Origin: a virus
Length of the DNA stretch: 64,000 nt
IMG/VR virus record: IMGVR_UViG_3300034103_001027
Span: 1-64,000 of that record
Strand: one strand, 5' to 3'
The position numbers and the translations under genes were made by a program. The notes beneath the pieces are model-generated. The model was not told where the DNA came from. It saw only the letters and a list, made by a program, of their open reading frames with translations, and ran no database searches. Position 1 is the first letter of the stretch. The number at the start of each line of letters is the position of its first letter. Below are positions 7,174 through 62,252 of the stretch, one piece after another.

Positions 7174-7194
7174 ATTTTGACACGATGTCAAAAT
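7174..7194. repeat. palindrome ATTTTGACA-CGA-TGTCAAAAT
   Basis: The 19-bp core is the exact reverse complement of 8097-8115. Confidence 0.85.
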
Positions 7195-7207: not shown

Positions 7208-7435
7208 CTATTTGGCACGGGAGTTGCTAGAGCCGCCGCAACATCCTGCTCCACCGCTGCAATTGCACCAATCGCAACACTTGGCAAGCTCATTGCAGTT
7301 GCAGTCGGTGCATTGGCAGCTTGGGGAGCAATGGCACTTCTCGTCCCTGGCTGACTGAGTGTTGTACGAGACGACCGCTAGCGTGACTGACAGTGCTAGC
7401 AGGAACAATGTGGTTGTTATCTTCTTCTGGTCCAT
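7208..7435 (-). CDS. secreted or membrane-anchored metallothionein-like Cys-rich peptide
   Basis: Hydrophobic N-terminus (KKITTTLFLLALSVTLAVV), then 12 Cys arranged as CxC and CC pairs. AAGGA RBS upstream. Confidence 0.7.
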   Translation of the reverse strand: MDQKKITTTLFLLALSVTLAVVSYNTQSARDEKCHCSPSCQCTDCNCNELAKCCDWCNCSGGAGCCGGSSNSRAK

Positions 7436-8034: not shown

Positions 8035-8096
8035 TGCATCTCGTCATATAGCACATTCCGAAAGACTCTGCAACTAAAAGTTCCAAAAATCTGAAA

Positions 8097-8115
8097 TTTT
8101 GACATCGTGTCAAAA
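8097..8115. repeat. palindrome TTTTGACA-TCG-TGTCAAAA
   Basis: Exact inverted copy of 7175-7193. Confidence 0.85.
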
Positions 8116-14100: not shown

Positions 14101-17100
14101 TTCGCCTGTTTCCTTGAATGAAACAACGCCCTTGCCCTTCTGCTCAAGTCGATCCAGTATCTTGATGTCTTTGTCGTCGAACACAACAAAGTTATAGTAG
14201 CCCTGCTTATTGCCTCCTCTTAGGAAGTTTTCTGGAACGGCATTGCCTTTGATGCCGACGCTATGGAGGTCCTTTGATGCTGCCTTCTTGGCTTGGAAGT
14301 CAGTTAGCTCGAATCCACGTGAGATAGACTCTACTATGCTTTTCGCCTTGTCTATTGGTACCCCGTGATCATTAAGGAGGAATGCTGCCGCATATGGATT
14401 CCCGTCATTAATGGCATGCTCGACGGAGTCAATGACTTCTTGCTTGGTTCTTAGCTTCAGATCGCCGCTGGCAAGATCATCTACGATTTGCTCCAAAATC
14501 TCTTCGTGTGTTTTCCCATAGTAGTATGCAGCACTTTTTTGCCCTTGCTCGCTGATGAAGTATCCCAACTTTACATTGTATTCCCCAGCCACTTTCTCTG
14601 AAGCCATCTCTTTGATATCATCCAAGCTTGGCGCTGAGTCGTATACCTTTAGGAGTGGCCCAGCTTGATCTTCGACAGCTTTCTTAACGGAGAAGTTCGA
14701 GGACTTCGAGGCGTGTTCTTGCCTCGCCTTCTGCATCAACTGCTCATAGATTTCCTGGCCTTTAAGGCCTTTGTATGGGTAGTCCTCATCTAGGATCTTT
14801 TTAGCTTCATCCAGCGAGTTTGCGTACGAGACAGGGGTGTTTTCATGCGGAATGTGGGCGTACCACTTATCTTTGACAATGCTTTCGATCCACTCTGTCG
14901 CTTCTTCTTTTGTTTGAAAATACTCATCAAAGTCGTCATCGAAGATGTTGAATATTTCTGCGTGAAATTTATCGCCACGCTTTGTTATAACTCCAGAAAG
15001 AGGATCTTCGCCAGTCCCGAACCACCACTCGTTAGGCTGTGTGCCATTAAGGTTTTCTAGTTGCTTTATTAGGTCATCTTCGCTGGAGGCTGCGTCTACG
15101 ATGACCTCTCCTTGCCTGCCTCCATTCATGACAACAGCGTACCACCCCGAGCCGTCCTTTCTGACTTCTAAGTCGCCATTTTCGATTGCCTCTCTAGATA
15201 TATATTTATCCAGCGAGTCGTCGCGCCACTCTTGATTGATCTTCCTGACGTAATGCCCATCAAATCTTTCTAGCCGCAGCTCTCTTGAGTTGTAGTGATT
15301 GTGCGGAGTTTCTTCCCACTGTGTCTCTGCTGAGATCCCTAGCTTCTTAAGCCCCTCTTGCACCTTAGGTGGCTGCTCGCTGAATGGCTTATCCCAGAAC
15401 ATAAGATCATCGTTGTCTGGTACTTCCAGCTTGTAGAGAGCGCCTTGTGTTCCTATTTGAATGTCACCATCTTTTAGGCTGTCAAGCGTCCTTAATGCTT
15501 CTCCGTAGTTGTGTTGAAATTTTGCTTCGGCGAGATCTCTTCCATACTTTTCGATTCTTCCTAAGAGTTCCCTCGCGGCCACATGTTGCTGGAGTGCCCA
15601 TAGATCCTCCGGGGTGATCATCTTTCTTCTGTCTATGGTCCTTGTTAGGTACTTGCGCTTTTTGATTTCTATCTCAATTGACTCATTGGTGAATACATTG
15701 GATAGTTTTTTTATCGCGTCCTCTACAGAAACAGCTCCTTCTCTCCAGTCGCTCTGGTTTTTAGGTACTTCGACTATTGGTTTTATTTCATCAAACACAA
15801 TGTCCATGAGTTTCACTGCATCATTCGGAATAGCCGCTATCCCTGGTGGGTGTCTTCTAGCTATCTTCTCGATGAGTTCAACTGCCTCTTTATTGTTGAC
15901 CCCCACCAATTTAAGATACTCTTTAGCGTCTACTTCGAACGCAGAGATAATTGGCTTGAGATCTAATAATGCCCTTATCTCTATAGCATCTACGCTACTT
16001 CGCTTCCTCGATAGGATATTTTCTTTGATTCGGTCGACGATTTCCGCTAGGCCGCTTTGGGATTTCTGTTTGCGAATGTCTTCTGCAACAGCCCTGATGA
16101 TATAGTGAGCTTGCGATATAGGTTTTCCTTTGTATGTATCCGGAGCACCATTACCAGCCAGAGCTTCCTTGTATCTCCTGCCCAGTCCCTCTCGCTGGGC
16201 TGAATAACCACCAAATCCATGCGCTTGACCTGCACCTTCAACACCTCTTCCTTCACCTGTGCTAACACGGCTCAAGTCAAATCGACCGAGCGGGAAGTTT
16301 TGGAGTGTCTCAGCACCTTCTGGAATAGCCTCTCCTGCTTCGAGATACCTCTCAGATCCATCTGGCATTCGAACAAGCATTTCTGGTGCGAATACGTGCG
16401 GAGTTCCGTGGTATGCTATTTGCAGTAATTCATTCACTGCACCATTTGCATCTCCAGCGATTCTAGAGGCAAAGCCAGCGGCTTCTTCCGGTGACATTGA
16501 CTCGATGGTAGTGAGTAATACTCTTTCATTGCCGCCAGCCTTAACGAATTCTCTGATCAATGGAACCATAGCATCAGCCGCATCTTTATTGACTGTCCTT
16601 TCGATGCTTTGATGCAATCGGTTCAGTTCGGTGTTATGCTTCGCGTTGTCGCTGAACTTCTTGGGTGGGTCGTTTTTTCTGGCTGTATCTAGCAGTAGAT
16701 TGCCAGTTGTTGCTTCTGGCTTCTTAGTGAACATGCCATCGAACAGGTTTTGCTTCTCATCGCTCCAATCGCGACTCAGTGGCGAGTTTTTGATTCTTTT
16801 GTATATGCCACTTATCCACTGCTTCATCTTGGCGAATATCGCCGTAAGGTCGCTTGTTGGAGCCTTGCCTGTTGCGAGGTACTTCTCGAAGTCTCGAGCA
16901 AAAGCCTCTTCTTGTTCTCTAGTCCACTTGCCGTCTTTGACTTTGTATATCTTCTCAGCTAAGTCTTGTAGGTCCTTGCGGAGTCGTCTGCGCGCAATGT
17001 GTCCTAGTTCGTGGGCAACTGTAGAGATGTTCGCGTTTTCGAATAGAAATACTTTCGCGAATGCATCAGGTTCGTTGAATCGAACTGCGCCACGGACTAG

Positions 17101-20100
17101 TTCCTTGCCTTTCGTTCCTGTTCGCTGATAGAGTTCTTGGCTTAGCTCTGGGTGTGCTATTTCCCACCCAGTAACAAACGGCGTGTCGTTATTTTTAATT
17201 AAAGTTAGTAGAGCCTTCCTTTGACTGATCGGAGTTCCTTTTATCTCTCGGTTTATCAGTCTCATTATTTTTTTATCGTCAAAGCTGCTCCATTCCTGTA
17301 TTTGAGACATTGGCCATTCTGATTTTAGCCACGCCTTGTGCGATTCGCTTCCGAAGAATATTTCTGCAGCGTCCCTAGATGATTGGCTTGCTGAGTTTGG
17401 AAGTTGCTTTTCTATGGTTCCTATCGCTTCTATGAATTCGTCTTCTTGCTTGAACCCAGCAGCAAAGTCCATTAATTCGGAAACGATTTTCATTGATCTA
17501 GGAGATCTGTCGTATCCGACTACTTTCGCTATGATATCGGAGATTCCTTCCCACATTCTTGCGATTAGATCTGCGATTCCTTGGTTTTGGAATGACGTTT
17601 TGTGGATCAGGTTGTCGGCGAATAATTGCGCAAACATTTCATCTACGCTGCTGGAGTAGTAGTCTGCGGCTGATGTTCCGTCTGGACGCTTCAGTCTTTC
17701 GTAGATATCTTTGAAGTATTTCTTTCCTTCTCCTGTCTGTGCAAATTGGGATATGATACTCCTGGATAGGTGTCTCATTTTTGAGTCCATGGAGTAATAT
17801 GCGATGTGCCCTAGTTCGTGCATTAATACAATTGCCCTTCTCTTGGACCGTGGGTTTAATTGTATCTTTTGCCCTCCGAGCATAGGTCGACCGTACTTAT
17901 CCAGTTCCATTATCGGGTACGCACTTGCCCAGCCAGCCATTTCCATGGAACTGTTTAGTTCGACTGCGGCGTTTGCGTGGAAGTGCTTGGCATCTTTGAA
18001 TGCTATTTCTAGGAAGTTTATTTCATCGCTGCTTAGGTAACCTTGTTTCTTGAGGTAGTCCAAGTGGTATCCGAACTTATCTCGGAATGCTGTTATCTGT
18101 TGTGGCGAGGCTTCTGCTTCAGATTGAAACAGGATATTCGGATTCGTGGCGTCGAACGTGCCTTTGTTTGCTGTGGCTGATTTGATTTGGGATGGCTCGA
18201 AGGCAACGATTTCGCTTTCGGCAAGTCGCTTGTTTTCTTTGCCAGCACTAGCAGCAACGCTCCTGTCGTATATCTCTCCGTCATATCCGGCATCCTCTAG
18301 TGCTCTTCGTCTTGCTACTGCGAAGTTGCGAGCGTACTCATCCACGTCTGCCTTGGCTGCCCTAGTTATCCTGTTTAATCTCTCTAGTTCTTCTAGCCCC
18401 TTACTAATAATGGATGGGTCGTTTGTTATTCCGTGTATAAATGGCTTCTTCAGGTTCAGGTAGACTGGAATAACTCCTCTCTTGTCGCCTACGCTAAACA
18501 TGGCATACTCTGAGGCTAGGTCCGAGCTTTTGGTGAAATAAGATCCAGCAGCAATGTAACCTTCGTCGTTAGCGCCAAAGGCTGCTGTATTGAATGCAGG
18601 TGTTTCACTTAGAGGCATTAAGTAGCCTCTGTATGTAGGCTGTGGCGGTATCGATGCAATCTCCTCATCTATCGCAAGCTTTAGTCTTTTAATGTCCTGG
18701 TGCTGGTCAAATAGTCGGATGTAAGCATCATGGCTTATCGCGTCACGAGAAGTCCCAGGGAAGTTCTGCCAGAACCTCATTGCTTCTTGCTTGTTATCTG
18801 CGACGTGTATTGCTCCGGCTATTCTGTCGGCAATGTATTTATTTTCGACCAACTCAGATACTTTAGCGAGGATATCTTGCTCGGCAGCTTCATCCGCTTT
18901 GTTTCTGTCTAATCGAAGTTGTTCTTTCCTCTTTTGATATGTGCTGTTCCACGCCTGATCGTCGGCTTTATATTGTTCAAGCTTACGGTTATGCGCGGCG
19001 GCCTCCTGCGTGCCTAGGTCAGAGAACCCTGTTCCATGATAAACAGCCAGTGGCTCTCCAGTATTGGGGTCCACGACCTTACTGGCATTAACTGGGTCAT
19101 TCTCCCAGTCTCCAAACCACTTTTTGAATGCTGGCGTCCTAACTTCAACCCACTGTCGGTAATTCAGGTTGGTCTTTCCGGCTGCTTTCGCTGCATTGTA
19201 GGCAGTCCTCCCGCCAATGCGTGATTCTGTGGCTGTAAACTCTGCGCTAGTAATCTCATCCTGATGTAAGATTCCTTGTAGTAAGTCGCCTTCCTCTTGG
19301 GTTTTCAGAAAATCTTCGTAGCTTGTGCTGGAGAACTCTGCACGCAGGTAGTCGTCTGGTTTTTGGTCTGCGGCATCCGCAAGAGCCCTTACGATTGCTT
19401 CGTAGTTGTCGGCTATTTCGTCTACATTTGCTTCGTTGCTGTATCGCTCCTTGATGGCCTTTCGTAGCGACTGCAGTGGTGTTTGCGTTTCAGTTGCTGC
19501 GTCCGCTGCTTTGGTGGTGTTTTTTAGCTTGGCTGATGCGATGTAATTTTGCGGGCTCTTCATCGCCTCTGCAAAACTTATATCCAGAGCCTTGCCTGTG
19601 GCTCTGCTGGAGAATGTTATATTCTCTTTGCCCAATAGGGAGCCTAGCGCCCCTAGTGCTGATTGGTTGGTGAAGTGACCAGAAATGGAGGTTGGGTTGT
19701 ATTGTGAGGACTTTTCGATGATTTCATTGAGCAGTGCCTTTCCAGATCCTTTCGGTGCATTGTCGTTTTTGCCGAATGCGTCGACGTAGATCGAGGATTC
19801 GTCTCCGGAGAACCTGAGCGTAGCTTCTGCGGATCCGGTTTCTTGTTGGACCTTTAGTCCGTATGAATCGTCGCCGTAATTGACCCACTCTCCTGCTGGC
19901 TGTGGTGTATCTTGCTTCTGTGGAATGTCCGGATTTGTCCGGATCGTGTCCGGATTAGTTGATACCGGATCTGGTATATTTTCAGACCTTGGCTTTCTGT
20001 ATTTCTCGGCGGACTTCTGGTACTCACGTTTCCAGTTATTCATCTTTGAAGGATTGCCCGCTCCACCAGTTGCCTCATCTGCGGCAGCCTTCTGCGGTTT

Positions 20101-22314
20101 GGTGATATTCTCAAAGAACCTCCTTAGCTTATTCTCCTCCTTGCTCTTGCCGGTGATGGACTTGGCGATATTGCTCAACAGATTCTTGACGTGTTCCCAG
20201 AATCCAGGTTCAGCTTGTTCGCGATTTGCGAACTCCTGGAATCCATCTGCAAATGCTTCGCTTGCCTGCGTATTCCACTTACCGCTACCTGGCTGGAACA
20301 TCGGGGCGTCCGGGCCTAGTCTCTGATTGATCGCATCGGTCATATCCTGCAGATACGGCGTGCCCTCAAACATCTTCTCGATGTCATGCCCGATCTCATG
20401 GAAGAAGCTCCCGGCGTTCGCCTCCTGGGATGCCGCCAATATAAACCTCTCTCCTGTATCCAAGTTGGCCCTATACTGCGCAAGAGTCCCCTTGTCAGCC
20501 AAATCCACTGATTGAACCCTAAGAGTCCTAAAGTACTCATCAGGATCGATATTGCCATGTATGGCACTCCAGGTTCGCGAGATTGCCTCTAGAATCGCGA
20601 AATTCTTTACGATGCGTTCTGGTTCACCGAACGTCCTGATCGCTTCATAGAGCGTCCTGGTGGCTTCTGGGCCTACATTGCTTTGTACCAGCTTGCCCTT
20701 AGCGTCAATAAGCCCCATGGCACCGAGTCTTCCTTGTAGTGCCTTAGGGCCGGAAGACGCGATAGAAGCGACTTCTGTGTCACTTAACCCGGACTTAATC
20801 AATGCTTCCCTAGCCGCTGCGTCATCGACCTTGATGGTCTTAGGTGGCTTTACTGTACTTTTGTTCAGTAGTGGGTTCGGTTGAGGCGCAGGTTGACCCG
20901 TTTGGGCCCCTGGAATGGAAGGGCCTTGCGGGGCATCTGGGGTGATGGCGGCAGGGGTCGGCCCTTGTGGTTTGTTTGGCCCTTGTGGGTCAATAGGCGT
21001 CGATGGCGTGTCTCCAGCTTGTGACGCAGGCGGCGTTGGTGGCTGTGGAGGGGTTGGTCTTTCTGGGGCGTCAGGCTGCTTCTTCATCCAGTCATCCCAG
21101 CGGGTGTCTGGATTGGCGAGGGTCTTCTCGTAGGCTGGTCTTGAGAGTGGCAGACCGACACTGACCAGGCTGCGCATTGGCTTAGCCATGTCTTTGGCTA
21201 GAGCTTCGGCTAGTTGTTCCTCTGAGAGGGTCTTTCCGTACAGGTGCTGGTAGATTCCCTTGATCTTGTTTTCCATGCCAGCGGGTGTCATCTTAAGGAC
21301 AGAGCCTTGCAGGGTGTTCATTGCGGCGCGTGTTCCTTCCGCATCAACTTCCCACTGGTCGGTTTCCTTTGCTTTCTTGTACACCGCGAACGTGCCATCG
21401 TTGTCCACGAGGGCCCATTCGTTGGACTTGGCGACCGTTGTTGGCGCTTCGTCGATTGACTTGAAGGCGCTGCTGGCGCTCTCGCTCTTGACTTGCTTGC
21501 CGTCCACAAACTGCCCTACACGGGTAGCTACTCTCGATTTGGTGAACTTATTGACATGTTCGAACACCTTGTTGCCGGTAACGGAAGCCTTGGCGAATTG
21601 CCCTCCGACCCAGCTTGGATTCTTTCCGGCTTTTCCGGATAGTTCAGCCATTTCTTTGGCGAGCGGTCGCAGCTTCTTGACGCCCATATTGGCGAAGACT
21701 TGCCCGATCTTCGTTAAGCCGAACGAACCAAGGTAGGTTAGTGGGTCTGTAGCCACTTCTAGTGCTAGTCCAGCGCCGAAGTTGGCCCATGTATCTTCCT
21801 TTTTGTCGGCCAGGCCCCAATCTCGCAGCATCTGCCTGCCTTCGACTCGGTTCTCTTGGAAGTTCCTTCCGAACGGATCTAGCAATTGATCGAATGGGTT
21901 CCTTGGCGTCGTGCCTCCGGGAAGCCAAGTAAGCACATCTCGCGCCATTGACCCTGGCAGGTCTAGAGCATTACCAACTGCAGCTACCGAGTTAAGAGCC
22001 ATCATGCCAGCCTTGCCAGCTAGTGACATGTCTTCTGGCTTCTCTTGGGTCGGCTCAGCAGTAGGGAACACGTTGGGGTTAGAAGCGGATTCTATGGCGC
22101 TTTGGCTCTGCCTGGATGTTGGTAATCCCTGAGGGTCATTGCGCTGGTAGGCGGTCTTCCTGGTTGTCACGCGAGACCCAACTGGATTGTAGTCTTGGTT
22201 GGGCTCTTCCTCTCGCTGGCTGGAGGTTCTGCGCGAGCCTCTAGCGGCAGCAATAGCCGCAGTTCTTGGAGATGGAAGGTTGCCGTATGCTGCTTCGTAT
22301 AATGGATTACTCAC
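8140..22314 (-). CDS. giant polyvalent (probably virion-injected) protein with four zincin-like HExxH modules, a GNAT-like domain, two ADP-ribosyltransferase-like domains and an LPD38-like C-terminus
   Basis: 4724 aa. HExxH motifs: FFHEIGH, LMHELGH, VAHELGH, VIHELSH. GNAT-like: KGSGKALL. First ART-like domain: VRTPAFKKWFGDW...GEPLAVYHGT...YFT...VYLNLKKP...GYDG...EIVAFEPSQIKS. Second: AYHGTPH...FDLS.V.TGEG...GALY.LE..D...NFVVFDD. C-terminal: QFDYSNLS.FER...LIPFYTF. Confidence 0.85.
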   Translation of the reverse strand: MSNPLYEAAYGNLPSPRTAAIAAARGSRRTSSQREEEPNQDYNPVGSRVTTRKTAYQRNDPQGLPTSRQSQSAIESASNPNVFPTAEPTQEKPEDMSLAGKAGMMALNSVAAVGNALDLPGSMARDVLTWLPGGTTPRNPFDQLLDPFGRNFQENRVEGRQMLRDWGLADKKEDTWANFGAGLALEVATDPLTYLGSFGLTKIGQVFANMGVKKLRPLAKEMAELSGKAGKNPSWVGGQFAKASVTGNKVFEHVNKFTKSRVATRVGQFVDGKQVKSESASSAFKSIDEAPTTVAKSNEWALVDNDGTFAVYKKAKETDQWEVDAEGTRAAMNTLQGSVLKMTPAGMENKIKGIYQHLYGKTLSEEQLAEALAKDMAKPMRSLVSVGLPLSRPAYEKTLANPDTRWDDWMKKQPDAPERPTPPQPPTPPASQAGDTPSTPIDPQGPNKPQGPTPAAITPDAPQGPSIPGAQTGQPAPQPNPLLNKSTVKPPKTIKVDDAAAREALIKSGLSDTEVASIASSGPKALQGRLGAMGLIDAKGKLVQSNVGPEATRTLYEAIRTFGEPERIVKNFAILEAISRTWSAIHGNIDPDEYFRTLRVQSVDLADKGTLAQYRANLDTGERFILAASQEANAGSFFHEIGHDIEKMFEGTPYLQDMTDAINQRLGPDAPMFQPGSGKWNTQASEAFADGFQEFANREQAEPGFWEHVKNLLSNIAKSITGKSKEENKLRRFFENITKPQKAAADEATGGAGNPSKMNNWKREYQKSAEKYRKPRSENIPDPVSTNPDTIRTNPDIPQKQDTPQPAGEWVNYGDDSYGLKVQQETGSAEATLRFSGDESSIYVDAFGKNDNAPKGSGKALLNEIIEKSSQYNPTSISGHFTNQSALGALGSLLGKENITFSSRATGKALDISFAEAMKSPQNYIASAKLKNTTKAADAATETQTPLQSLRKAIKERYSNEANVDEIADNYEAIVRALADAADQKPDDYLRAEFSSTSYEDFLKTQEEGDLLQGILHQDEITSAEFTATESRIGGRTAYNAAKAAGKTNLNYRQWVEVRTPAFKKWFGDWENDPVNASKVVDPNTGEPLAVYHGTGFSDLGTQEAAAHNRKLEQYKADDQAWNSTYQKRKEQLRLDRNKADEAAEQDILAKVSELVENKYIADRIAGAIHVADNKQEAMRFWQNFPGTSRDAISHDAYIRLFDQHQDIKRLKLAIDEEIASIPPQPTYRGYLMPLSETPAFNTAAFGANDEGYIAAGSYFTKSSDLASEYAMFSVGDKRGVIPVYLNLKKPFIHGITNDPSIISKGLEELERLNRITRAAKADVDEYARNFAVARRRALEDAGYDGEIYDRSVAASAGKENKRLAESEIVAFEPSQIKSATANKGTFDATNPNILFQSEAEASPQQITAFRDKFGYHLDYLKKQGYLSSDEINFLEIAFKDAKHFHANAAVELNSSMEMAGWASAYPIMELDKYGRPMLGGQKIQLNPRSKRRAIVLMHELGHIAYYSMDSKMRHLSRSIISQFAQTGEGKKYFKDIYERLKRPDGTSAADYYSSSVDEMFAQLFADNLIHKTSFQNQGIADLIARMWEGISDIIAKVVGYDRSPRSMKIVSELMDFAAGFKQEDEFIEAIGTIEKQLPNSASQSSRDAAEIFFGSESHKAWLKSEWPMSQIQEWSSFDDKKIMRLINREIKGTPISQRKALLTLIKNNDTPFVTGWEIAHPELSQELYQRTGTKGKELVRGAVRFNEPDAFAKVFLFENANISTVAHELGHIARRRLRKDLQDLAEKIYKVKDGKWTREQEEAFARDFEKYLATGKAPTSDLTAIFAKMKQWISGIYKRIKNSPLSRDWSDEKQNLFDGMFTKKPEATTGNLLLDTARKNDPPKKFSDNAKHNTELNRLHQSIERTVNKDAADAMVPLIREFVKAGGNERVLLTTIESMSPEEAAGFASRIAGDANGAVNELLQIAYHGTPHVFAPEMLVRMPDGSERYLEAGEAIPEGAETLQNFPLGRFDLSRVSTGEGRGVEGAGQAHGFGGYSAQREGLGRRYKEALAGNGAPDTYKGKPISQAHYIIRAVAEDIRKQKSQSGLAEIVDRIKENILSRKRSSVDAIEIRALLDLKPIISAFEVDAKEYLKLVGVNNKEAVELIEKIARRHPPGIAAIPNDAVKLMDIVFDEIKPIVEVPKNQSDWREGAVSVEDAIKKLSNVFTNESIEIEIKKRKYLTRTIDRRKMITPEDLWALQQHVAARELLGRIEKYGRDLAEAKFQHNYGEALRTLDSLKDGDIQIGTQGALYKLEVPDNDDLMFWDKPFSEQPPKVQEGLKKLGISAETQWEETPHNHYNSRELRLERFDGHYVRKINQEWRDDSLDKYISREAIENGDLEVRKDGSGWYAVVMNGGRQGEVIVDAASSEDDLIKQLENLNGTQPNEWWFGTGEDPLSGVITKRGDKFHAEIFNIFDDDFDEYFQTKEEATEWIESIVKDKWYAHIPHENTPVSYANSLDEAKKILDEDYPYKGLKGQEIYEQLMQKARQEHASKSSNFSVKKAVEDQAGPLLKVYDSAPSLDDIKEMASEKVAGEYNVKLGYFISEQGQKSAAYYYGKTHEEILEQIVDDLASGDLKLRTKQEVIDSVEHAINDGNPYAAAFLLNDHGVPIDKAKSIVESISRGFELTDFQAKKAASKDLHSVGIKGNAVPENFLRGGNKQGYYNFVVFDDKDIKILDRLEQKGKGVVSFKETGEAAIKILTGEGDASTVIHELSHVFRRNLSEDLMSKADKAIGHQLKDADTLRNILGGIASAELKDANGNWTREAEEVWARLFEKYMLDGTAPTTALKEVFAVIKRMMRSVYKTLKVSPEINAKINDDLKQVFDEMLGKNKKPLSQNKNTLLDTAQGTPRRGQLGLFDGEDYATSNKPRNALEEAAAPVEPPALKPSPGQLELPLNPIDDRPADNILSRMAQRSQSSKRVITETPGTKSVDTRKPKKTQEPTTAIPKQMPVGPVELRKRKTAAEKATAEQVAEQAADPAKRTKRLKQILDPDEAEGIEIFEADQLPYLRDNMEQVRFDLANVSTPEQYQEFMTNLVKNINESIPDADIPEAIKLLQDLDQQFINKYIKVHGITETLSNKLGITGDKDFLGSLAGAVNEALQVTMKTKRPDKLAKKHAADKVSSIILNNLDTIRGAQKLEDVTELSDEAIDALKKADASITDTDIDIIKRYLKSPTETSKKAKAKISKAAAPVETVKEAAKEVKYQGGQAVRDMSLQDAKAVLEALDATPEQRGLEALKQQVQQLRDKGKSLKGDAAEDNTREIAELNERITQAQDLISQKSQAESELSSLQRKISLRKKKTGKNPTSAQKEELDSRSNGLNEYNKLIKKAIGPEPQKDNKKTLEELFLSMNKFRQVIAEENIDQATKDSLESLAQQARNEILKRMQISVRKAATSAAFNDASRASDFIDQPEVIKMIENHEFIDKNGQFRDIGHTLIKNRFLKNNKGPMVNVKISHTPDNLKYLSEQADRDEYQELLNKIEKDPDYTVNKFATDKGNRHIETIMQTIRDAARKDFAKGIETPGVDMISVSAVDETLEHSISARNLAEYMLGDEFQGSLSTNEKLVLDTLLNKKMLDDPNSALLNRSNSQDYEMALASAHLASKLFDKNRIGLEQFNAIWNKLIERATLGANGKMFIVNQTRSAAETQAAKISHKLARPIWNEIYEHVKGDSIITTVLQALDAGENLFYATPGAKMFLQLFDRSVMGAYDHDTQELARLRFQAFEQSIYEFRAMLYPISRYIGETQLFDLKAIATNLIDNAKLPREEALTKAKAIINARNNEIIRFFEAKPEKLYHLSPEVFKDTDIDLDKLETMLQSLKDAFPRMLDEQRKNGLSGSALFDTEVPYYPRNYTEPGKHLRSRTDGEALMSTKMDSQRQRDEAYRHIPGGRALINEMSLDPKLSGIAHKEEILKNKLSKETLTAARKHAIAKYGLHNILSSDPIHGFYKDGKLTKKGKAKVNRLITSIAKLPEDHITEGVPMFGHNFLRDFAAYAESHHTKNAVGLTVQDLVTRSATYKGEQKYLVSSLFQATALDNHNAYLNVLRGTDNFPGYKQFVDEKIKKLIKDKKLSVNRDANGKITGYTYKHTKKPQDFKTLDEFIEAKHLSKIYADKIKLSVPKEIHESATHFLRTWTTPPQISTLVQISGAALNTFKSLVTLPFPSFHSRNFISGMMQNVFYGAYDPTATIGGIYSPVLGHIKPLRQAVSISNGNVAKGISKEIPRFLWDDDLNIPDEMIGTPEGDELVTDWVRQGVFRFGLTGDKQGQAAEKIGDTVSSLVSQNPGAIKRNAENWYGLKPAIFDKTTSAKGKANPIGIQGSLTPSFQKAPGEGRRKLGLQRTEDTTFVAGRIGEEMSLFVENANRIMPYIAFLKQGVTPEEAAKRVNMIQFDYSNLSDFERRYMKQLIPFYTFTSKALKLTLGDLITNPAGKQAWVIRGTNRLQDREAAIPEHIRKGVAIPLPQGPGGEDRYLSGFGLAWEDPIELMSFMHGDVQGTASSLFSKLRPEAQGFAELAFGRSAFFGRDFRDMDPQLGRLRDNLIGQSGKGLSEPIAGSQSLEVLAGKLPTSRLVSSVNQAFDDRKSAVDKLLNLATGFKVNTVNEEAKNRIIMNRVNEEMKDLGAREMGITYVPEWQKQRMSEAERRRMELLQQMVNEIKKESRENKKKAQLENLKAAASTPSE

Positions 22315-36942: not shown

Positions 36943-37742
36943 GGAGGTAGCTCCTCGTCACATTCTAGGCAGGTTACGTAGAAGTATTTTAGACACCCAT
37001 CAAACATTGCGATGTAGTGTTCGGCTGTACCAGTCCCGCACCCAATAAAATCAAGCTCGACCCACATATCAAGAGTTCCGCCCGGAGGTATGGATATATT
37101 GGTGGAGTCTCTATTGAAGTTTATACCAGTTGGGTAGCCTCCAACGTAACCGTGAGACGCCGCAACCACATGGCCAAGCAAGCAATTTTGCTGCACTGGT
37201 GCAAACTCACAGTTGAAACTCGAAGGGTCAGACTCCCCTGCTCTACATGGCGGAGCACCTGCTTGGCAGTCCTCGCCATCTATTGGGTGTGTTGTCCATG
37301 TGCATAATCCATCGTTGAATATCGTCCAGGATATTCTGACTCTTGCTGGTATCTTATTACCATCACTATCTATAGTGGAGCAGGCTCTTTCGGGACTCAT
37401 TGCAGGTGGTGGATCATTTGAGACTCCTCTAGGTGCTCGACAGATTGAGTCAAAAATAGGTCCGCAGAATTCGTTAGGGAAGGCAGTATATCCATCCCAC
37501 GCAATGCAGCAATTACATGGCGCGGAACTAGAACTGGAACTAGAACTGGAGCTAGAACTGGAACTAGGGCTGGAACTAGGTCTGGAACTAGGGCTGGAAC
37601 TAGAACTGGAACTAGAACTAGAACTGGAACTGGAACTGGAACTAGAACTGGAACTAGAACTGGAACTGGAACTGGAACTGGAACTAGAGCTAGAACTGGA
37701 ACTGGAGCTAGAGCTACCGCAGCAGCAGAATCTTGTTGGCAT
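36939..37742 (-). CDS. poly-serine, Cys-rich protein (candidate glycosylated virion appendage)
   Basis: MPTRFCCCG, then a tract of about 60 Ser, then APCNCC and a Cys-rich domain. Confidence 0.75.
   Translation of the reverse strand: MPTRFCCCGSSSSSSSSSSSSSSSSSSSSSSSSSSSSSSSSSSSSSSSSSPSSRPSSSPSSSSSSSSSSSSSSAPCNCCIAWDGYTAFPNEFCGPIFDSICRAPRGVSNDPPPAMSPERACSTIDSDGNKIPARVRISWTIFNDGLCTWTTHPIDGEDCQAGAPPCRAGESDPSSFNCEFAPVQQNCLLGHVVAASHGYVGGYPTGINFNRDSTNISIPPGGTLDMWVELDFIGCGTGTAEHYIAMFDGCLKYFYVTCLECDEELPP
37524..37716. repeat. hexanucleotide tandem repeat (GAACTR)n encoding poly-Ser
   Basis: About 32 units of GAACTG/GAACTA/GAGCTA. On the minus strand these are alternating AGY and TCY codons. Confidence 0.95.
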
Positions 37743-51705: not shown

Positions 51706-52815
51706 TTATGCTGCGTAGTAAGCGCCGGTGTACTTGGGCTGATGGACATAGTTGCCCAAGAAGCCTACTAGGAATTGACTCAACTGGCTTTCTGTGGACC
51801 AATCAGTGTCAGTGAAGAACAGGTCGCTGTGTACTGAGTACAGGGCTGACGTTGATGGGTTGATCGCAAAGCCTTGACCTGCTGGGCAGTCAAAGTCGCT
51901 GGTGATCAAGGATCCACCGTAAGTCAGCGTGTCAGGGAAGCCTAGATTAGAGGCGTAATCGCTAACGCGAGTTCGCTCTCGTTCTTCCAGTCTGTCCTCG
52001 ACGGCGCTGTACAATTCTTGCGACAGCAACTGAACGACAGGAGCAGCGCCTTCGCCACCAGTGTGACGGATTGACTGAGTCATTCGTCGCATCGCTTTCA
52101 AGCAGTTAGCTGCCCATCCTGTCGATGCGCCGATGCTGGCCGAGACGTTCATGATCTTGGGACTGTTGTAGTCATAATCGCTGGAGCCAGAACCAAGTGG
52201 CCAGTCAGTAAGTAGCGCGGCGCATGGACGGCCTGATCCAATATTGTTGGACCATGTCCCGCCAATGGCTCCAAGAGCGATTGACAGTCCACCGTAGGTG
52301 GTTCCTGCGGTTGGCTTCATGATCCACTCAGTGGATGGTGAGCCAGGCGTGTCACCCTTCAAGAAGCTCTTGATCCCAGTCATGTACTGAGAGTTTGCTC
52401 CACTGTTGTCGATGTAGAACTGGCCGTTCAACTTGCGAGTCATCGCTCGAACCAAGCGGTCCATCTTCTTGCCAGCTTCGTCAACGATTGCTTGAGGCGA
52501 ATCGCTGTTGATCATTTGGAATCGACGACGCATAGTGTCGGTTGACTCTAGTTCGGCGTGCGAAATTCGCAGTTGCTCGTAAACTTGGGTTTCGTCCCAT
52601 ACGTGACGGTCGCTGCCAGTGATGGCACGAACCTTTGGCTCGCGTACTTCGATGTCCCAGACCATTTCTGGAGCCTTCATGTTCAGGATAACATTACCCT
52701 GGATTTCCATGAGCTTCAGCAAAAGGCGATTTCGGATGGTGTGATCGGTGGCTTCCTTAAAGTAGGCTGGCACCGTTACTTTGAGCGCGGCTAGCGCTTC
52801 AGCAATGGCATTCAC
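51706..52815 (-). CDS. major capsid protein
   Basis: 369 aa, downstream of the scaffold gene. M.G+.S, TYGG, LGF..L.Y.G..I..D.DCP and L.N.....P segments are consistent with an HK97-fold capsid protein. AAGGAG RBS. Confidence 0.8.
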   Translation of the reverse strand: MNAIAEALAALKVTVPAYFKEATDHTIRNRLLLKLMEIQGNVILNMKAPEMVWDIEVREPKVRAITGSDRHVWDETQVYEQLRISHAELESTDTMRRRFQMINSDSPQAIVDEAGKKMDRLVRAMTRKLNGQFYIDNSGANSQYMTGIKSFLKGDTPGSPSTEWIMKPTAGTTYGGLSIALGAIGGTWSNNIGSGRPCAALLTDWPLGSGSSDYDYNSPKIMNVSASIGASTGWAANCLKAMRRMTQSIRHTGGEGAAPVVQLLSQELYSAVEDRLEERERTRVSDYASNLGFPDTLTYGGSLITSDFDCPAGQGFAINPSTSALYSVHSDLFFTDTDWSTESQLSQFLVGFLGNYVHQPKYTGAYYAA

Positions 52816-52880: not shown

Positions 52881-54122
52881 CTAGTTTCTCCACCCGCTGA
52901 CCCGCTCGGCGTTCTCTGGATTCATTCGAACCATATTTGCCAGGCGAAGCGTTGGGAGAGTTTTCGATACATGCCCAACGTCTGCCGCTGGGGTTTGTTG
53001 ATTTGGTACTGGCTGTCTGTTGTCAGCCAAGAGTCGTTTTTGCTGCGCCTGAGTTAGGACGGGTGCTGGCTCGGCGACTGCTGCTTGTGCTTGTGCTTGT
53101 TGAGTCCCTGCTGTCGCGAACTCAAGTGCGAGTTGTCGCAGTGTGATTTCTGGAGCGCCGGGAAGTTGTGTTCGCAATTGCGAAAGCTTGTTCTTGAAAG
53201 TGCTTCCCGCTTTAGTCCAGGCAACGTCGCCGGATCCGAAGAAGTCTTGTTTTGGCTCGCCGTTTGCGTCCAAGTGGAACAGGACAGACTTGTTTACTTC
53301 GTGCCACTGCTGGAGTGACTGCCTGCTCTGTCGCTCTTGCTCGGCCTGGACGTAACTCTGTCGCTCTTGCTCGACTCGGGAGTTCATCTCAGCAAACCTG
53401 GCTTCGATGATTCTCTGTGCCTTTTCCTCGGCGATTTTCTCGATAATCTCTTTGCTGTCTTCGACTACTGCCATCGGGTTCCGTAGGAGCATGTCAGCCT
53501 GCTCTCGGGATGCCCTTTCGTACTCGTTGATTGTACGGGCTGCATCGATACTCACCGCGCCGAATGAAGTAATTGGCTTGGCGTAACCACTGTCATCGCG
53601 TTCGACGTAGTTTTCCAGTAGTGGATCATACTTCTGCAGCTCACGGAACCGTCTCGCGATTTGTTGCGATTGAGTCTCTGGTCCCGTTGGTTGAGAATGT
53701 CCTGTTGTGTCCTGAGGGGCAGCCGCAGACTGAGCGGGTTGACTCTGAGAAGCTCTAAGCTGTTCTAACTCGTCCCTGAGTCGCGCTGCTTCCGACATAG
53801 CTTGCGAACCCGCCAAAGCGCGAGAGATGACGCTTTCGTAGAGTTCTGCAGGATCAGTCCCTTCATCGACAGTGATACCCTTCTGTCTGAGAAGGTCTTC
53901 AAACCTGATGGCCGCCTCTGAAGGCTGGCCCTGCCCCTGGTCTAAAACTGAAGCGGCATCCGTGCCTTCTACTGTCTCTATTCCCGGCGACAGTGCTTCA
54001 GTTGTAACCTGCGATACTTCCTCGCTAACCGTTGTAGCTGCAGTATCGCTTGTTTGAGTTGTGTCTGCTTGTGTTTTGCTGCTGGACATAAAGTCCGCAA
54101 AACGAAGTTCTTGGGATGTCAT
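52881..54122 (-). CDS. putative capsid scaffolding protein
   Basis: Acidic, rich in Q/A/E, coiled-coil, directly upstream of the major capsid gene. Confidence 0.65.
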   Translation of the reverse strand: MTSQELRFADFMSSSKTQADTTQTSDTAATTVSEEVSQVTTEALSPGIETVEGTDAASVLDQGQGQPSEAAIRFEDLLRQKGITVDEGTDPAELYESVISRALAGSQAMSEAARLRDELEQLRASQSQPAQSAAAPQDTTGHSQPTGPETQSQQIARRFRELQKYDPLLENYVERDDSGYAKPITSFGAVSIDAARTINEYERASREQADMLLRNPMAVVEDSKEIIEKIAEEKAQRIIEARFAEMNSRVEQERQSYVQAEQERQSRQSLQQWHEVNKSVLFHLDANGEPKQDFFGSGDVAWTKAGSTFKNKLSQLRTQLPGAPEITLRQLALEFATAGTQQAQAQAAVAEPAPVLTQAQQKRLLADNRQPVPNQQTPAADVGHVSKTLPTLRLANMVRMNPENAERVSGWRN

Positions 54123-54197: not shown

Positions 54198-54294
54198 TCA
54201 GTGACTAGAAAGCTCCCGAATTGAGTATCAAAAAAATAAAAAAATCGAAAAAGGAATAATGTGTAGGCAATGGTTCTTTTTAAGAAAGGTGTTT

Positions 54295-54507
54295 ATGGAC
54301 AGTATTCCTCCAACGGAAGAGTGGCTATCAGCTAAGGAAGTGGCGGCAATCTTTGGCGTCAGCGTGTCTCGGGTTTATTTTGCGCATAGTACTGGACGCA
54401 GGAATTCGTCTGGATCGCTAGTGCGGCTGACTATGTTTCGGACTCTGTCCGGACTGGCTACGACCAGGAAGCTCGTGGATGAGTTCCTGCTGAAGCTGAA
54501 TGGTTAG
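54295..54507 (+). CDS. excisionase-like winged HTH protein (DUF1580-like)
   Basis: WLSAKEVAAIFGVSVSRVY...G......V.L...R......TT...V..F. AAGGTG RBS. Confidence 0.7.
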   Translation: MDSIPPTEEWLSAKEVAAIFGVSVSRVYFAHSTGRRNSSGSLVRLTMFRTLSGLATTRKLVDEFLLKLNG

Positions 54508-54694
54508 AAGCCCATGCACTGGAAATTGTATCTTATGTGATACAATATGCATTGGCTGTGGCAGGACTCTCGATGAGATATTTCGATGGCGCGCTATGCG
54601 CGACTGCGAGAAGCTCGAGGTTTTGAGGCGGACGGGAGCACTGGACTGTGAGTCCACTTCCAGCGATGAATCAGCCGAAGGTGATCCGCGCTAA
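54500..54694 (+). CDS. DUF1289 family Cys-rich protein
   Basis: SPCTGNC.....CIGCGRTLDEI..W..M. Confidence 0.8.
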   Translation: MVRSPCTGNCILCDTICIGCGRTLDEIFRWRAMRDCEKLEVLRRTGALDCESTSSDESAEGDPR

Positions 54695-56021
54695 ATGGCT
54701 TCTTGAGGCTGAGTCTTGCCTTGTGTTTGCACTTGCCCCACAAGCTGCTGCCAATCATCTCGTGCATGATGTCTATCTGTCTCAGCCTGCGCTGCACATA
54801 GGATCGCTTGAGCATTGTCAGATTGGCCTTGACGCCTAGTTCCCTGGCCTTGATGGCTATGATCATGTCCTCGATTTGAGTGGTAGACAATCCGAGTTCG
54901 TACTTCATGACCCATATCTGACCGGCTTGAAGCAGTTGCTTCTTATCGACAGCCAGTCTCTTTTGGTGTTCGCTAATCTGTTCTATTTTGAATCCAGCGC
55001 GAGGGAGTCCATTTGGCCTTCCGTTTGCTTGGCACCATGCAGCAGTTTCCTTGTTTCGATTAGACTTCATCTGGCTTTCTAATTGTGCAATTGAAGCCAT
55101 CAGCGATATCCATTCCTTACCCTGCCCTGTGTCTGTCCTGATTCGCTCGCAGACGAAGTGAACGTAAGCGCCTTTTCGCTGTATCTCGGCTATTGTCTTC
55201 ATGGCGTCCAGGGTATTTCGCCACCCTCGATCCATTCGGTAGATAACGACGTCATCCCCTGGCTGCAGGTCGTTCATAAGCCGCTTACCGGCCTCTCGCT
55301 CCATAAATGGCACTGAGAAGGCGCTAATGGCAGGATCGGAGTAAACTGGCCCTACAGGGCACTGTAGCTTCTCTGCGAGGTCCTCTGCGTATTTGGCATT
55401 GGCAGTGCCTTGCCACTTCAGGCCGAGCCCTGAGACGTACTGTGGCTCTGTGGATACACGTTCGTACATGCGGATCGTGCCTGTTGGTCGCTCCGTTTTG
55501 ATCTTTTGAGGCAGGACGAATTCGCTATTCATCCATTTGACTTTTGGCTTCGTGTTTGACGATTGCGAGTTTTGAAGCCTCTTGATTAGTAGTGCTTCTC
55601 TAATTCGCTCGCTTGTCACATCAGAAGCGTATTGAGCCATAGCGGCTAGGATATTCGCCTGTAGCTTCCCGGAGGCTGTGGTCGTGTTGATCTGGTTGTT
55701 GATGAAATGCACGAAGATACCCTTCTCCTCGAAGAAGTGCATCAAGTTGCAGAAGTCTCTCAGGTTTCTGCATAGTCGGTCGATCTGCAAGCATATAACG
55801 TGGTCGCCCGGCTTTACCTGCTCGATGATGCGACCACCACCTGGGCGGCCCGCAAAGGATTTGCTCCATGCGCTGACGCCAGCATCAGTAACCACAACTT
55901 GCTCAGCCTCTGGTATAACCGAAGTGGCATAATTGGTTGTCCTGACCATTTGGTCTGGTATACTGATGTCAGAGGCTTTGGAGTCCTTATGGCTAACGCG
56001 ATTGTAAAGGAATGCTTTCAT
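54594..56021 (-). CDS. serine recombinase with two tandem resolvase catalytic domains
   Basis: Domain 1: YNRVS...D.GVSA...RP...PGD....IDRLCRN...SERI. Domain 2: YERVS...D.AISA...R.....PGD....MDRGWRN...SNR.K. Confidence 0.9.
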   Translation of the reverse strand: MKAFLYNRVSHKDSKASDISIPDQMVRTTNYATSVIPEAEQVVVTDAGVSAWSKSFAGRPGGGRIIEQVKPGDHVICLQIDRLCRNLRDFCNLMHFFEEKGIFVHFINNQINTTTASGKLQANILAAMAQYASDVTSERIREALLIKRLQNSQSSNTKPKVKWMNSEFVLPQKIKTERPTGTIRMYERVSTEPQYVSGLGLKWQGTANAKYAEDLAEKLQCPVGPVYSDPAISAFSVPFMEREAGKRLMNDLQPGDDVVIYRMDRGWRNTLDAMKTIAEIQRKGAYVHFVCERIRTDTGQGKEWISLMASIAQLESQMKSNRNKETAAWCQANGRPNGLPRAGFKIEQISEHQKRLAVDKKQLLQAGQIWVMKYELGLSTTQIEDMIIAIKARELGVKANLTMLKRSYVQRRLRQIDIMHEMIGSSLWGKCKHKARLSLKKPFSADHLRLIHRWKWTHSPVLPSASKPRASRSRA

Positions 56022-56709
56022 GGGTAAACGTCGAAAAGGAGGGATGTTTTCACCGAGTCCCTATGTGACTGGTGCGAAGCAAATGTCAACTGGAGAGGAA
56101 TTGCAAGCGATTGCCGTATACCAGAAGACGAGAGATGGTAGTTTAGCGGAATCGGTACTTAAGTCAAGGGCCTCTTGGGTGCAGAGTATCATTGCTAATA
56201 TACCCATGCCCAGCTTTGCTGACATGGATACGGTGTTTTCTGATGTCATGCTGGCCGTCTATGAGTCGCTCTCGAACTACGATGAATCCAAGGCGGCCCT
56301 GTCCACATACCTCTGGAGGGTTATCTATAATTCTGCACTGACCAGCGCCAAAGAGCAGGATACAAATGCTGAGCAGTTTACCCCTGAACTGATCGTCGAT
56401 GAGGCCGTTGATTACTCTGAGTGCATCGAAAACGCCCGAAAGGTCATCTTGAATACACCCCCCGAGATGCTCAATGAGCGATCCAGAAAGGTTGCGCACA
56501 TGATGCTCAAGGGTTACTCCGTTCAGGAGATAGCAAGCACCTTAGACGTGACCAAGTCCGTTGCCGGTGAGATAATCACCAGCATACGTCGATACATCGC
56601 TTGGTGCATGGTCAAGCAGAATCTATCTGCAGAGCCGGTCATTAGCGACAGCGATCTTATGGATCTGGCTGAGGAGCATGAGCGGGCCAATGTGACCAAA
56701 TGGCGGTAG
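56020..56709 (+). CDS. sigma-70 family (ECF-like) RNA polymerase sigma factor
   Basis: Region 2-like D.D.V..DV....Y..L..YD...AALSTYL..V..N. Region 4-like LNERSRKV..M...GYSVQEIA..L.V. The start codon is uncertain. Confidence 0.75.
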   Translation: MGKRRKGGMFSPSPYVTGAKQMSTGEELQAIAVYQKTRDGSLAESVLKSRASWVQSIIANIPMPSFADMDTVFSDVMLAVYESLSNYDESKAALSTYLWRVIYNSALTSAKEQDTNAEQFTPELIVDEAVDYSECIENARKVILNTPPEMLNERSRKVAHMMLKGYSVQEIASTLDVTKSVAGEIITSIRRYIAWCMVKQNLSAEPVISDSDLMDLAEEHERANVTKWR

Positions 56710-61298: not shown

Positions 61299-62252
61299 TT
61301 ACTCAGCTTTGAGTGAGTTTGCTTGCGTTAAGAATTGCTTCAGTGATACCCTGCACTGCGCCGTATTGAATCCTGCTGCGTCCAGATCGCTGAGCCTCTC
61401 CTCGATCCGCTCGCACAGCGGTGTGATTGACATGAGCGCGAATCTGAGTGACTCAGATGTCGACTTTGGTCTTATTTCGCCCTGGACTATCATCAGGCCC
61501 TGCTTGACACTGGTAACCTCTGGGTCCTCTAGGACTGATGAGAGCAGTTCCTGTTTTTCTGGAGCGAGGCTGGATAGTTTCTTGATGCTCTGGTGATCTG
61601 CTACTACAACGCCTGAGGCGACCCGTCTTTTAACTTCAGGGCTCATGTACTTGGATTTATTGATTGCCTCTAGATCGTCAGCCTTGGGGTTCCTTTTTGT
61701 CTTGGGTAGAGCGTCTCGCAGTGTCATATGCGGATTCTCTTTGATCCTTTGCTCGACAGCCGATGCCTCTAGTGGCTGCAGGGTGGAGAACTCCTCCCAG
61801 TCTTTCTTGCTGTTGATGATTTCGCCGGACAGGCACTTTTCCCTGAATCCCTTGGATGCCTTGTCCATCGAGTCAGCCATCTCGATGTCTCGGTAGACAG
61901 TTCGCTCGCTGACATCGAATGCCTCAGCGACCTCCGCTGGAGATGTCATCTTGGCCATTGTTCCACGGATATATGCGACTTCTGATTCAGACAGGTTTCT
62001 CTTGCCAACCTGATTCTTTAGGACCCACAGCCGAGCCTCTTCGATATCAGCGAACTCCATCTCTTTTGTATGGGTCGCAAGGTTGTGCTTCTTGGCTATC
62101 TTGAGCCTGTGGCGACCGTCGACCAAGTATCCATTCCATACCTTAATTTCATCTAGGACGCCATGCTCAAGGCAGTTCTCCTCGAGATCCTTGTACTCAT
62201 CCCTGGTTAACGCTCGAAGGGATTCGACTAATTCCATTTTATATTCTTGCAT
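61299..62252 (-). CDS. ParB-like domain protein with an HTH
   Basis: L...EY..L......G....I.VW...LVDGRHR, NQ.G+RNL, VAEAFDVSERTVYRD. Confidence 0.8.
   Translation of the reverse strand: MQEYKMELVESLRALTRDEYKDLEENCLEHGVLDEIKVWNGYLVDGRHRLKIAKKHNLATHTKEMEFADIEEARLWVLKNQVGKRNLSESEVAYIRGTMAKMTSPAEVAEAFDVSERTVYRDIEMADSMDKASKGFREKCLSGEIINSKKDWEEFSTLQPLEASAVEQRIKENPHMTLRDALPKTKRNPKADDLEAINKSKYMSPEVKRRVASGVVVADHQSIKKLSSLAPEKQELLSSVLEDPEVTSVKQGLMIVQGEIRPKSTSESLRFALMSITPLCERIEERLSDLDAAGFNTAQCRVSLKQFLTQANSLKAE

Follow-up and report, generated by a model that had tools for sequence, protein, structure and literature searches.

Two serine-recombinase catalytic domains in one viral protein: a conserved architecture and its possible roles

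Serine site-specific recombinases bind each recombination site as a dimer, assemble into a tetramer at synapsis, pass through 5'-phosphoserine intermediates and exchange strands by a 180-degree rotation of subunits. How might such an enzyme work if two of its catalytic domains were tied together in one polypeptide? The question is raised by a gene in a 64,000-nucleotide stretch of viral DNA (the window), positions 1 to 64,000 of the IMG/VR record IMGVR_UViG_3300034103_001027. The whole record, which comes from an uncultured virus, is 106,833 bp long and is called G000 here. The gene lies on the minus strand at 54594..56021 (stop codon 54594-54596) and encodes a protein of 475 amino acids (aa), P0001, in which two resolvase-type catalytic domains, D1 and D2, stand in tandem.

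Such a protein is difficult to reconcile with current mechanistic models, which rest on four separate subunits, each with a single active site, and on the rotation of half of the tetramer. How is rotation accommodated, or limited, when two cores are tied? How is the recombination site read with half of the usual contacts? And what keeps both catalytic centres? Here we follow the protein through its relatives and its genomic setting. We tentatively read P0001 as a genuine and functional serine site-specific recombinase, composed of D1, a tether of about 30 residues, D2 and a DNA-binding tail, that would act on the phage's own DNA; the reading as a whole falls a little short of an even chance.

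Two catalytic domains in a single frame

Pfam reports the Resolvase family, PF00239, in two stretches of P0001 (173 bits). When the halves are scanned singly against this model, whose gathering score is 23.3, the first (residues 1-167) reaches 101.3 bits and the second (residues 168-350) 77.8 bits, and each half spans nearly all of its 145 positions. D1 (aa 1-150; 55572..56021, minus strand) is matched to the catalytic domains of Sin and Gin at a Z of about 15, and D2 (aa 181-335; 55017..55481, minus strand) to those of Sin and gamma-delta resolvase at a Z of 15-16. Aligned with one another, the two domains show 31% identity (BLASTP E 2e-22). Between them lies the linker (aa 151-180; 55482..55571), and D2 is followed by a predicted C-terminal DNA-binding region (aa 336-445; 54687..55016) and a non-conserved tail modelled with low confidence (aa 446-475; 54597..54686), all on the same strand.

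Each domain carries its own set of catalytic motifs. D1 has Y6-x-R8-V-S10-H, D46/S50/R59, D81-R82-x-x-R85 (in the form DRLCRN) and an E-helix at residues 116-150; D2 has Y186-x-R188-V-S190, D229/S233/R242, D264-R265-x-x-R268 (DRGWRN) and an E-helix at 299-332 that runs on into a G-R-P arm. The residues that define the superfamily, a nucleophilic serine within Y-x-R-x-S together with the equivalents of D36, R68 and R71, are thus present twice. The predicted D1 nucleophile, Ser10 (codon at 55992..55994), is never substituted in 129 aligned D1 copies; its D2 counterpart, Ser190 (codon at 55452..55454), is serine in all 147 aligned D2 copies, and the D2 catalytic residues are invariant in our alignment A1. 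The first-pass annotation of the window, made from the letters of the DNA, had described two full resolvase domains in one chain and had quoted the motifs YNRVS, YERVS, D.xSA...R and DRxxRN and an E-helix; the two Pfam matches bear out the domains, and all of these motifs are in P0001.

Where does the protein begin? In a public gene call, P0002 (451 aa), this protein is started at M25, which leaves it without S10. Residues 1-24, including the Y-x-R-V-S-H motif, are kept in every homolog with a full N terminus, and this shows M1 (position 56021) to be the real start.

A word-indexed search found about 33 full-length relatives, 34-69% identical to P0001, and an exhaustive profile search of 1.84 billion cluster representatives returned 367 proteins at E<=1e-30. 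Among the best 150 of these 367 (E<=2e-58), most are 450-590 aa long and, evident fragments excepted, the match takes in the two catalytic domains wholly or for the most part. The cluster to which P0001 itself belongs has six member sequences on seven contigs. It is hardly credible that this arrangement is an artefact, whether a fusion of adjacent resolvase genes by sequencing or assembly error or a duplicate in decay. With a domain hidden Markov model built from the family, 149 of the 151 sequences checked have the two domains in one open frame, and the remaining two look like fragments; these sequences come from independent assemblies and share a conserved linker length and motif. At the 13 loci for which DNA was at hand, the frame is open through both domains every time, and both domains are strongly constrained. 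Besides P0002, several homolog entries in databases start inside D1; we found no support for an artefact. The suspicion, voiced with the first-pass annotation, that a stop or frameshift in the linker separates two genes therefore fails.

The arrangement is absent from the better-known collections. No record among cultured phages covers at least 80% of P0001, none of 72,556 plasmid records has the arrangement, and NCBIfam gives nothing above its cut-off and has no model for the tandem family. The nearest large clusters in the ESM Atlas are all single-domain. Our search of the literature, which left most subscription journals outside its reach, turned up no account of a serine recombinase with two catalytic domains; public domain-architecture listings may show the arrangement already, without comment. 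To judge by these comparisons, the architecture of the P0001 family is undescribed, and the distinct class that had been suggested from the window stands as a conserved class within the serine recombinases.

Are both domains still catalytic? In Tn3 resolvase, mutagenesis identified Y6, R8, S10, D36, R68 and R71 as critical, and D67 as 'not essential', its mutants keeping substantial cleavage and recombination (PMC2794168). Among 149 two-domain representatives of the tandem family, neither domain ever departs from the nucleophilic serine or from the equivalents of R8 and R68, and those of Y6 and D36 are nearly invariant in both. R71 never varies in D1, and 8 of 151 D2 rows have another residue in its place. 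The critical residues are likewise invariant in an alignment of 89 sequences (A4) that reaches down to about 21% identity, and in three separate subfamilies. The sole frequent change affects the D67 equivalent of D1, replaced in about 24% of the representatives; in D2 it almost never is. Mean pairwise identity is 52% in D1 and 54% in D2, as against 21% in the linker and 30% in the C-terminal region, and the most invariant stretch of the whole protein is the E-helix of D1. The alternative that one domain is consistently dead, also raised with the first-pass annotation, does not hold. Judged by this pattern of substitution, purifying selection acts strongly, and to the same degree, on the two active centres.

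Structure models and the origin of the tandem

An AlphaFold2 model of P0001, built on 28 homologs (mean predicted local distance difference test, pLDDT, 79.9; predicted template modelling score, pTM, 0.47), consists of two resolvase cores, both with a long E-helix (residues 116-150 in D1, 299-332 in D2). The linker between them, at about 151-180, has low confidence, and pLDDT falls below 50 at residues 158-175. A beta-hairpin and four helices follow D2 at 344-440. When self-association of two full-length copies was predicted with alignment A1, the score was 0.30 and the mark 0.42; this prediction had no controls and is used neither way.

The linker is rich in proline and lysine and has a semi-conserved motif, [KR]-x-[KR]..W..S-[ED], whose tryptophan (W163) is present in at least 90% of the family. 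Its length has a median of 31 aa and a 5-95% range of 24-51, in good agreement with the linker of about 30 residues first described. Because it is this long, the tether need not block a single 180-degree exchange.

The C-terminal region, about 110-150 aa, comprises an arm, a beta-hairpin and 4-5 helices with a unit resembling a helix-turn-helix (HTH). Among 28 family members it has no Pfam match and none to a zinc-ribbon (PF13408) or coiled-coil family, which upholds the earlier description of a short helical C terminus free of both; the recombinase domain, PF07508, gave no match at E<=1 in any of the 28. Residues 336-475 contain a single cysteine, and the models end in short helices plus a disordered tail. 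Folded alone, the region reaches a pLDDT of 80.8. In VIA-align its best Z is 5.3, in tied rows, with generic HTH domains at about 5; the alignments with the Bxb1 and LI recombinase domains are weak (Z 4.4-4.5) yet have the longest coverage, and the ESM Atlas leads for the region are PF07508 clusters. Within a whole-chain alignment to gamma-delta resolvase, residues 360-421 superpose on the resolvase HTH and the G-R-P arm is present; Pfam reports no resolvase HTH family there. From these models, we take the C-terminal region to bind DNA and to contain an HTH, with a topology that is possibly a trimmed version of that of the recombinase domain.

How did two catalytic domains come to lie in one protein? 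In a maximum-likelihood tree of the separated domains, read without a root, D1 and D2 are split by a branch with 97/84 support and their subtrees are broadly congruent. The large serine recombinases have their catalytic domains on D1's side of the split; P0035 and L012p (the protein of loci L012-L014), single-domain proteins of 275-280 aa that stand alone, group with D2. Because the branch is supported and the subtrees are congruent, a single duplication or fusion would have preceded the diversification of the family, and the tree thus indicates that one ancient event of this kind made the tandem.

The structure comparisons concern the second half of the protein. Residues 181-421 superpose on the whole chain of gamma-delta resolvase (2gm4_A; Z 15.7, 179 residues aligned, root-mean-square deviation 3.0). 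D2 and the tail, about 235 residues, align with the N-terminal domain plus recombinase domain of Bxb1 and Listeria-type integrases (9iu2_A, 9dxd_A), and in a structure search of the Atlas, viral recombinases of 244 aa correspond over their full length to residues 176-427 (TM 0.65). D2 plus tail is, by these alignments, a complete short phage recombinase of about 245-280 aa, and D1 is an added catalytic head, gained once and early.

Genome setting and the search for a site

The ends of G000 share an exact 126-bp overlap (8-133 and 106708-106833), offset by 7 bases at the start. The record, labelled linear and 77% complete, therefore probably stands for a whole genome of about 106.7 kb that is circular or circularly permuted. 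Nearly all of its genes are on the minus strand. The P0001 gene stands between a replication block upstream (helicase, 5'-3' exonuclease, prim-pol and PhoH) and the head genes downstream: a scaffold-like gene directly following on the same strand (52881-54122), the major capsid gene (51706-52815, minus strand), the terminase large subunit and a 693-aa portal-like protein, which has no match among 50,697 phage records.

We assessed synteny in every related locus long enough, on contigs of 47 to 118 kb. In L003, L005, L007, L008, L010, L032, L033, L034/L035 and L036 the recombinase gene comes immediately before the scaffold, terminase and portal-like genes and is read in the same direction; L051 has a rearranged yet nearby version of this order. 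Homology identifies the capsid gene in every locus with the standard order except L034/L035, where a 400-aa open reading frame (ORF) on the opposite strand, with no detected match, occupies its position. The order holds while the capsid proteins diverge to 25-39% identity. Matches of the terminase and capsid to PHROGs are weak, and the clade is far from cultured phages. By its conserved position, the recombinase gene is a vertically inherited core gene and a syntenic hallmark of this uncultured clade.

A small island of plus-strand genes surrounds it. At 56020..56709 a divergent sigma-70-like gene (Sigma70_r2, 30.4 bits; phrog_1740) overlaps, in its longest ORF, the recombinase start codon by 2 nt, leaving no room for an intergenic promoter at this junction (56019-56022); a sigma gene is also head-to-head with the recombinase, the starts overlapping or abutting, in L006, L007 and L008. 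Within the sigma ORF, an internal ATG at 56044 has a strong AAGGAGG ahead of it; the recombinase start has no Shine-Dalgarno sequence. Convergent with the recombinase are a small HTH_17-like ORF (54259-54507), with homologs in L007 and an HTH_17 ORF matching its place in L005 (28.4 bits), and a 64-aa DUF1289 ORF (54500-54694; E 1e-13). The latter overlaps the last 33 or so recombinase codons, where the tail is non-conserved and the model has low confidence.

On which DNA does the enzyme act? We found no convincing recombination site for P0001. In G000, self-comparison of the whole genome and a search with the flanking non-coding DNA yielded no match above chance, and no repeat longer than 15 nt common to the surroundings of the recombinase and anywhere else. 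An inversion or deletion switch in G000 is accordingly disfavoured; that the gene-adjacent sequence has no second copy agrees with a reaction in which each genome copy carries a single site, or in which the partner site lies outside the phage. Around the gene itself, the inverted and direct repeats are short, imperfect and within coding regions, and were rejected as sites.

Two other candidates in G000 were set aside. A 20-bp inverted repeat at 7175-7194 and 8096-8115 lies 47 kb from the gene and is terminator-like: each copy is an 8-3-8 palindrome (TTTTGACA-CGA/TCG-TGTCAAAA) just past the end of a minus-strand gene, followed by a T-rich run, and the two look like paired terminators. They bracket a 75-aa cysteine-rich, secreted-looking ORF (7208-7435) and the only long non-coding stretch of the genome. 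An 18-bp palindrome, CCGTCT-N6-AGACGG, has 15 copies (one mismatch allowed) between early genes at G000 80500-93250 and none elsewhere in G000; it is absent from a complete 97-kb relative and so does not travel with the recombinase.

That relative supplied the one lead we keep. A palindromic core occurs in it exactly twice, with centres at 23688 and 69921, 46 kb apart; the two copies form an inverted repeat of 47 nt (E 6e-13). One of them lies 42 bp past the recombinase stop codon, and the other is flanked by homologs of the genes found in G000 at 63797-65308 and at 61299-62252. The half-sites have an 11-nt core, and the long (29-nt) and short (15-nt) half-sites are swapped between the copies as in attL and attR; the central triplet is in direct, not inverted, orientation. 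The same core is found as a solitary palindrome in five unrelated IMG/VR viral contigs (L141-L145) without such a recombinase, and none of G000, G004 and G005 has an analogous hybrid pair. Both findings weaken the pair as a recombination site, and from its distribution the core is more likely an operator. Palindromes are also seen shortly past the recombinase stop codon elsewhere: in L003 at 10513-10531 (a perfect 9-1-9 palindrome, GGTGCAAAG-T-CTTTGCACC, 32 bp after the stop and present once in a 46%-complete contig) and in L051 at 11557-11576.

Does the phage integrate? P0001 is the only site-specific recombinase in G000, and the genome has no tyrosine integrase (PF00589), ParB, ParA/CbiA or S24 peptidase. 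Its only XRE-type HTH (PF01381, 32.7 bits; 71822-71986, plus strand) is in a 128-aa ORF transcribed against its neighbours, a possible CI-like regulator. We scanned one genome for each of 185,579 prokaryote species. A recombinase-motif pattern found nothing, and a capsid-motif pattern found a single locus, a 97,272-bp contig of L010/L023 (G001:C19), which is the 97-kb relative described above and comes from the SRR7515930 sample; this contig is self-closing, with a 55-bp overlap, carries phage genes throughout and is binned in the metagenome-assembled genome of an uncultured member of the Planctomycetaceae. The host group is possibly the Planctomycetes, a weak hint. Neither scan gave an integrated copy or prophage of the clade, a pattern-based negative that would miss divergent prophages, among likely hosts that are poorly sampled; we regard it as weak to moderate evidence against integration.

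Some further features of these genomes deserve record. A single ORF of 4,724 aa at 8140-22314 (minus strand) has a 1,305-aa homolog in the 97-kb relative, 29-36% identical in pieces. Tandem-repeat arrays lie within coding regions in the window at 37524-37716 and in G000 at 80970-81410 (units of about 6-12 nt and of 60 nt). At the ends of G004, the 70,085-bp contig of L032 that CheckV rates complete, the direct repeats (1-1133 and 68956-70085) are imperfect, with about 86-96% identity across 0.1-0.7 kb; the end overlaps of G000 and of the 97-kb relative are exact.

Possible roles and known recombinases

What, then, might a recombinase with two tied cores do? In the reaction we favour, both serines would cut DNA. 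One chain would give both nucleophiles for the double-strand break at one site, reading one half-site specifically, and two chains would supply the four catalytic cores of the synaptic tetramer. The proline- and lysine-rich tether would allow one 180-degree exchange and disfavour repeated rotation: it may span the rotation interface, permitting one exchange and resisting further rounds, or it may link cores that rotate together. The first-pass annotation had proposed that a chain could serve as a covalent pseudo-heterodimer for asymmetric sites, with rotation constrained by the tether. With one site per genome copy, the role could be to resolve replication multimers or concatemers, or to cyclise the genome. 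Action on the phage's own DNA is favoured over integration because the gene is a vertically inherited core gene and no integrated copies were found. The role is nonetheless the least certain part of our reading. A reaction on the phage's own genome has, by our estimate, somewhat less than an even chance; integration and something else altogether are unlikely in equal measure; an inversion switch is very improbable. Of the roles offered in the first-pass annotation, integrase comes out weakened, no integrated copy having been found, and invertase disfavoured, there being no repeated site near the gene in G000; resolution stays within our proposal.

Several observations weigh against this reading. 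Conservation of catalytic residues is no proof that both centres cut in the same reaction. In the P0001 subfamily D1 lacks an equivalent of Q14 (S-H-x-x-S in place of S-T-x-x-Q), a variant found also in D2 of other subfamilies and in stand-alone relatives. The placement of the two domains relative to each other in the model is unreliable, as its low pTM indicates. Because no recombination site was found, nothing ties the enzyme to phage rather than host DNA. The recurring excisionase-type HTH_17 ORF and the XRE-type regulator fit a temperate lifestyle, and the limits of the pattern scans, with divergent prophages missed and hosts undersampled, count on the same side.

An integrase or excision enzyme is the reading to which these last points lead. 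It would recombine an attP near the gene with a host attB, with the HTH_17 protein as directionality factor, and the second catalytic head may replace control by zinc ribbon and coiled coil. The genome has no other site-specific recombinase; D1 keeps company in the tree with large-serine-recombinase catalytic domains, and for the C-terminal region there are leads that resemble a recombinase domain; the HTH_17 ORF adjoins the gene in L005 and L007 and, weakly, in the window; the XRE-type ORF at 71.8 kb runs against its neighbours; and PHROGs files the domains under 'integrase'. We nevertheless consider this reading unlikely, if well worth keeping in mind. What the genome scans found was a free, circular, phage-sized contig; P0001 has neither zinc ribbon nor coiled coil, and we know of no characterised serine integrase that does not use both for discrimination of att sites; G000 lacks an S24-type repressor; and a gene fixed beside the head genes across deep divergence is unlike a swappable lysogeny cassette. 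Far less probable still is the reading of P0001 as a switch, a DNA invertase or deletion enzyme that works on two phage sites, for example around a regulatory or tail-fibre segment, even though JGI labels relatives 'DNA invertase Pin-like', phrog_125 of PHROGs is named 'DNA invertase', the gene sits in a small strand-switch island and the 97-kb relative has its inverted repeat with one copy near the gene. The orientation of the island is the same in all loci, G000 has no repeat that could serve, and the relative's pair suffers from the solitary cores, the direct central triplet and the two further genomes without such a pair.

A different doubt concerns the chemistry. D2 alone might act on DNA, with D1 as a built-in partner, structural or regulatory, that fills out a dimer or tetramer interface or gates the reaction, its residues kept for structural reasons or for a rare step. 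D1 has no DNA-binding domain of its own, its D67 equivalent is replaced in about a quarter of representatives and almost never so in D2, and the Q14 equivalent is missing as described above. Set against this, D67 is the dispensable member of the catalytic set; S10, R8, R68 and R71 are unreplaced in the aligned D1 copies, with Y6 and D36 nearly invariant, down to the most distant relatives aligned; and D1 is as conserved as D2, with the least variable helix of the protein. We judge a D1 without chemistry of its own to be rather improbable.

If both centres do cut, a bolder reading can be put forward, one that we hold doubtful. The family would be a natural class of 'single-chain dimer', in which both serines of a chain cut the two strands of one site, and two chains make a four-core machine that reads one half-site per DNA. 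By limiting rotation to a single step, the tether would confer intrinsic control of directionality or processivity, with no need of accessory sites, Fis-type enhancers, zinc ribbons or directionality factors. A version more extreme than this would have the enzyme sit covalently on both 5' ends of the cut phage genome and reseal them in the next host.

Two consequences make the family worth pursuing. For genome engineering, in which obligate heterodimers and single-chain designs have so far had to be built, the protein offers a recombinase scaffold that is compact and possibly self-contained. And a site-specific recombinase as a core gene beside the head genes suggests an unrecognised step in the DNA metabolism of the clade.

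How does P0001 compare with serine recombinases already known? Each of its halves resembles the small serine recombinases (gamma-delta and Tn3 resolvases, Sin, Gin and Hin) in having the Resolvase fold, the R-x-S ... D-R-x-x-R set and a long E-helix. Those enzymes have one catalytic domain in a chain of about 180-210 aa, whereas P0001 has two; its C-terminal region is larger than theirs and has no Pfam match to the resolvase HTH, and we found no site for P0001 resembling res, hix or gix. With the large serine recombinases (Bxb1, PhiC31, TP901-1 and the Listeria A118 type) it shares its encoding by phages, and hhalign of the family against them reported an alignment of D1 to the catalytic domain, with a probability of 99.6, and no other. 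The large enzymes possess a zinc ribbon and a coiled coil; P0001 lacks both, as well as a sequence-level match to PF07508, and carries an extra catalytic domain. Genes for the large enzymes are found at the boundaries of prophages or elements, beside att sites, whereas the P0001 clade came to light, within the reach of the pattern-based scans, as free genomes that close on themselves.

The IS607-type serine transposases have an N-terminal MerR-like domain, which is missing from P0001, whose sequence starts at beta1 of D1; structural matches of the IS607 kind cover the catalytic core only. Cooperation between two different catalytic units is itself familiar: CcrA and CcrB of SCCmec contribute one each to a single reaction. 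They are, however, separate full-length proteins, each with its own DNA-binding domains, whereas the cores of P0001 are fused and share one DNA-binding region; the NCBIfam Ccr models match P0001 weakly. A further likeness is to the short viral recombinases of about 245-280 aa (P0035, L012p and Atlas clusters of 243-262 aa), which consist of a catalytic domain and a recombinase-like domain and as far as we can tell are themselves uncharacterised. They equal D2 plus tail and share the R-V-S-H variant; to their one catalytic domain, the tandem family adds D1 and the tether.

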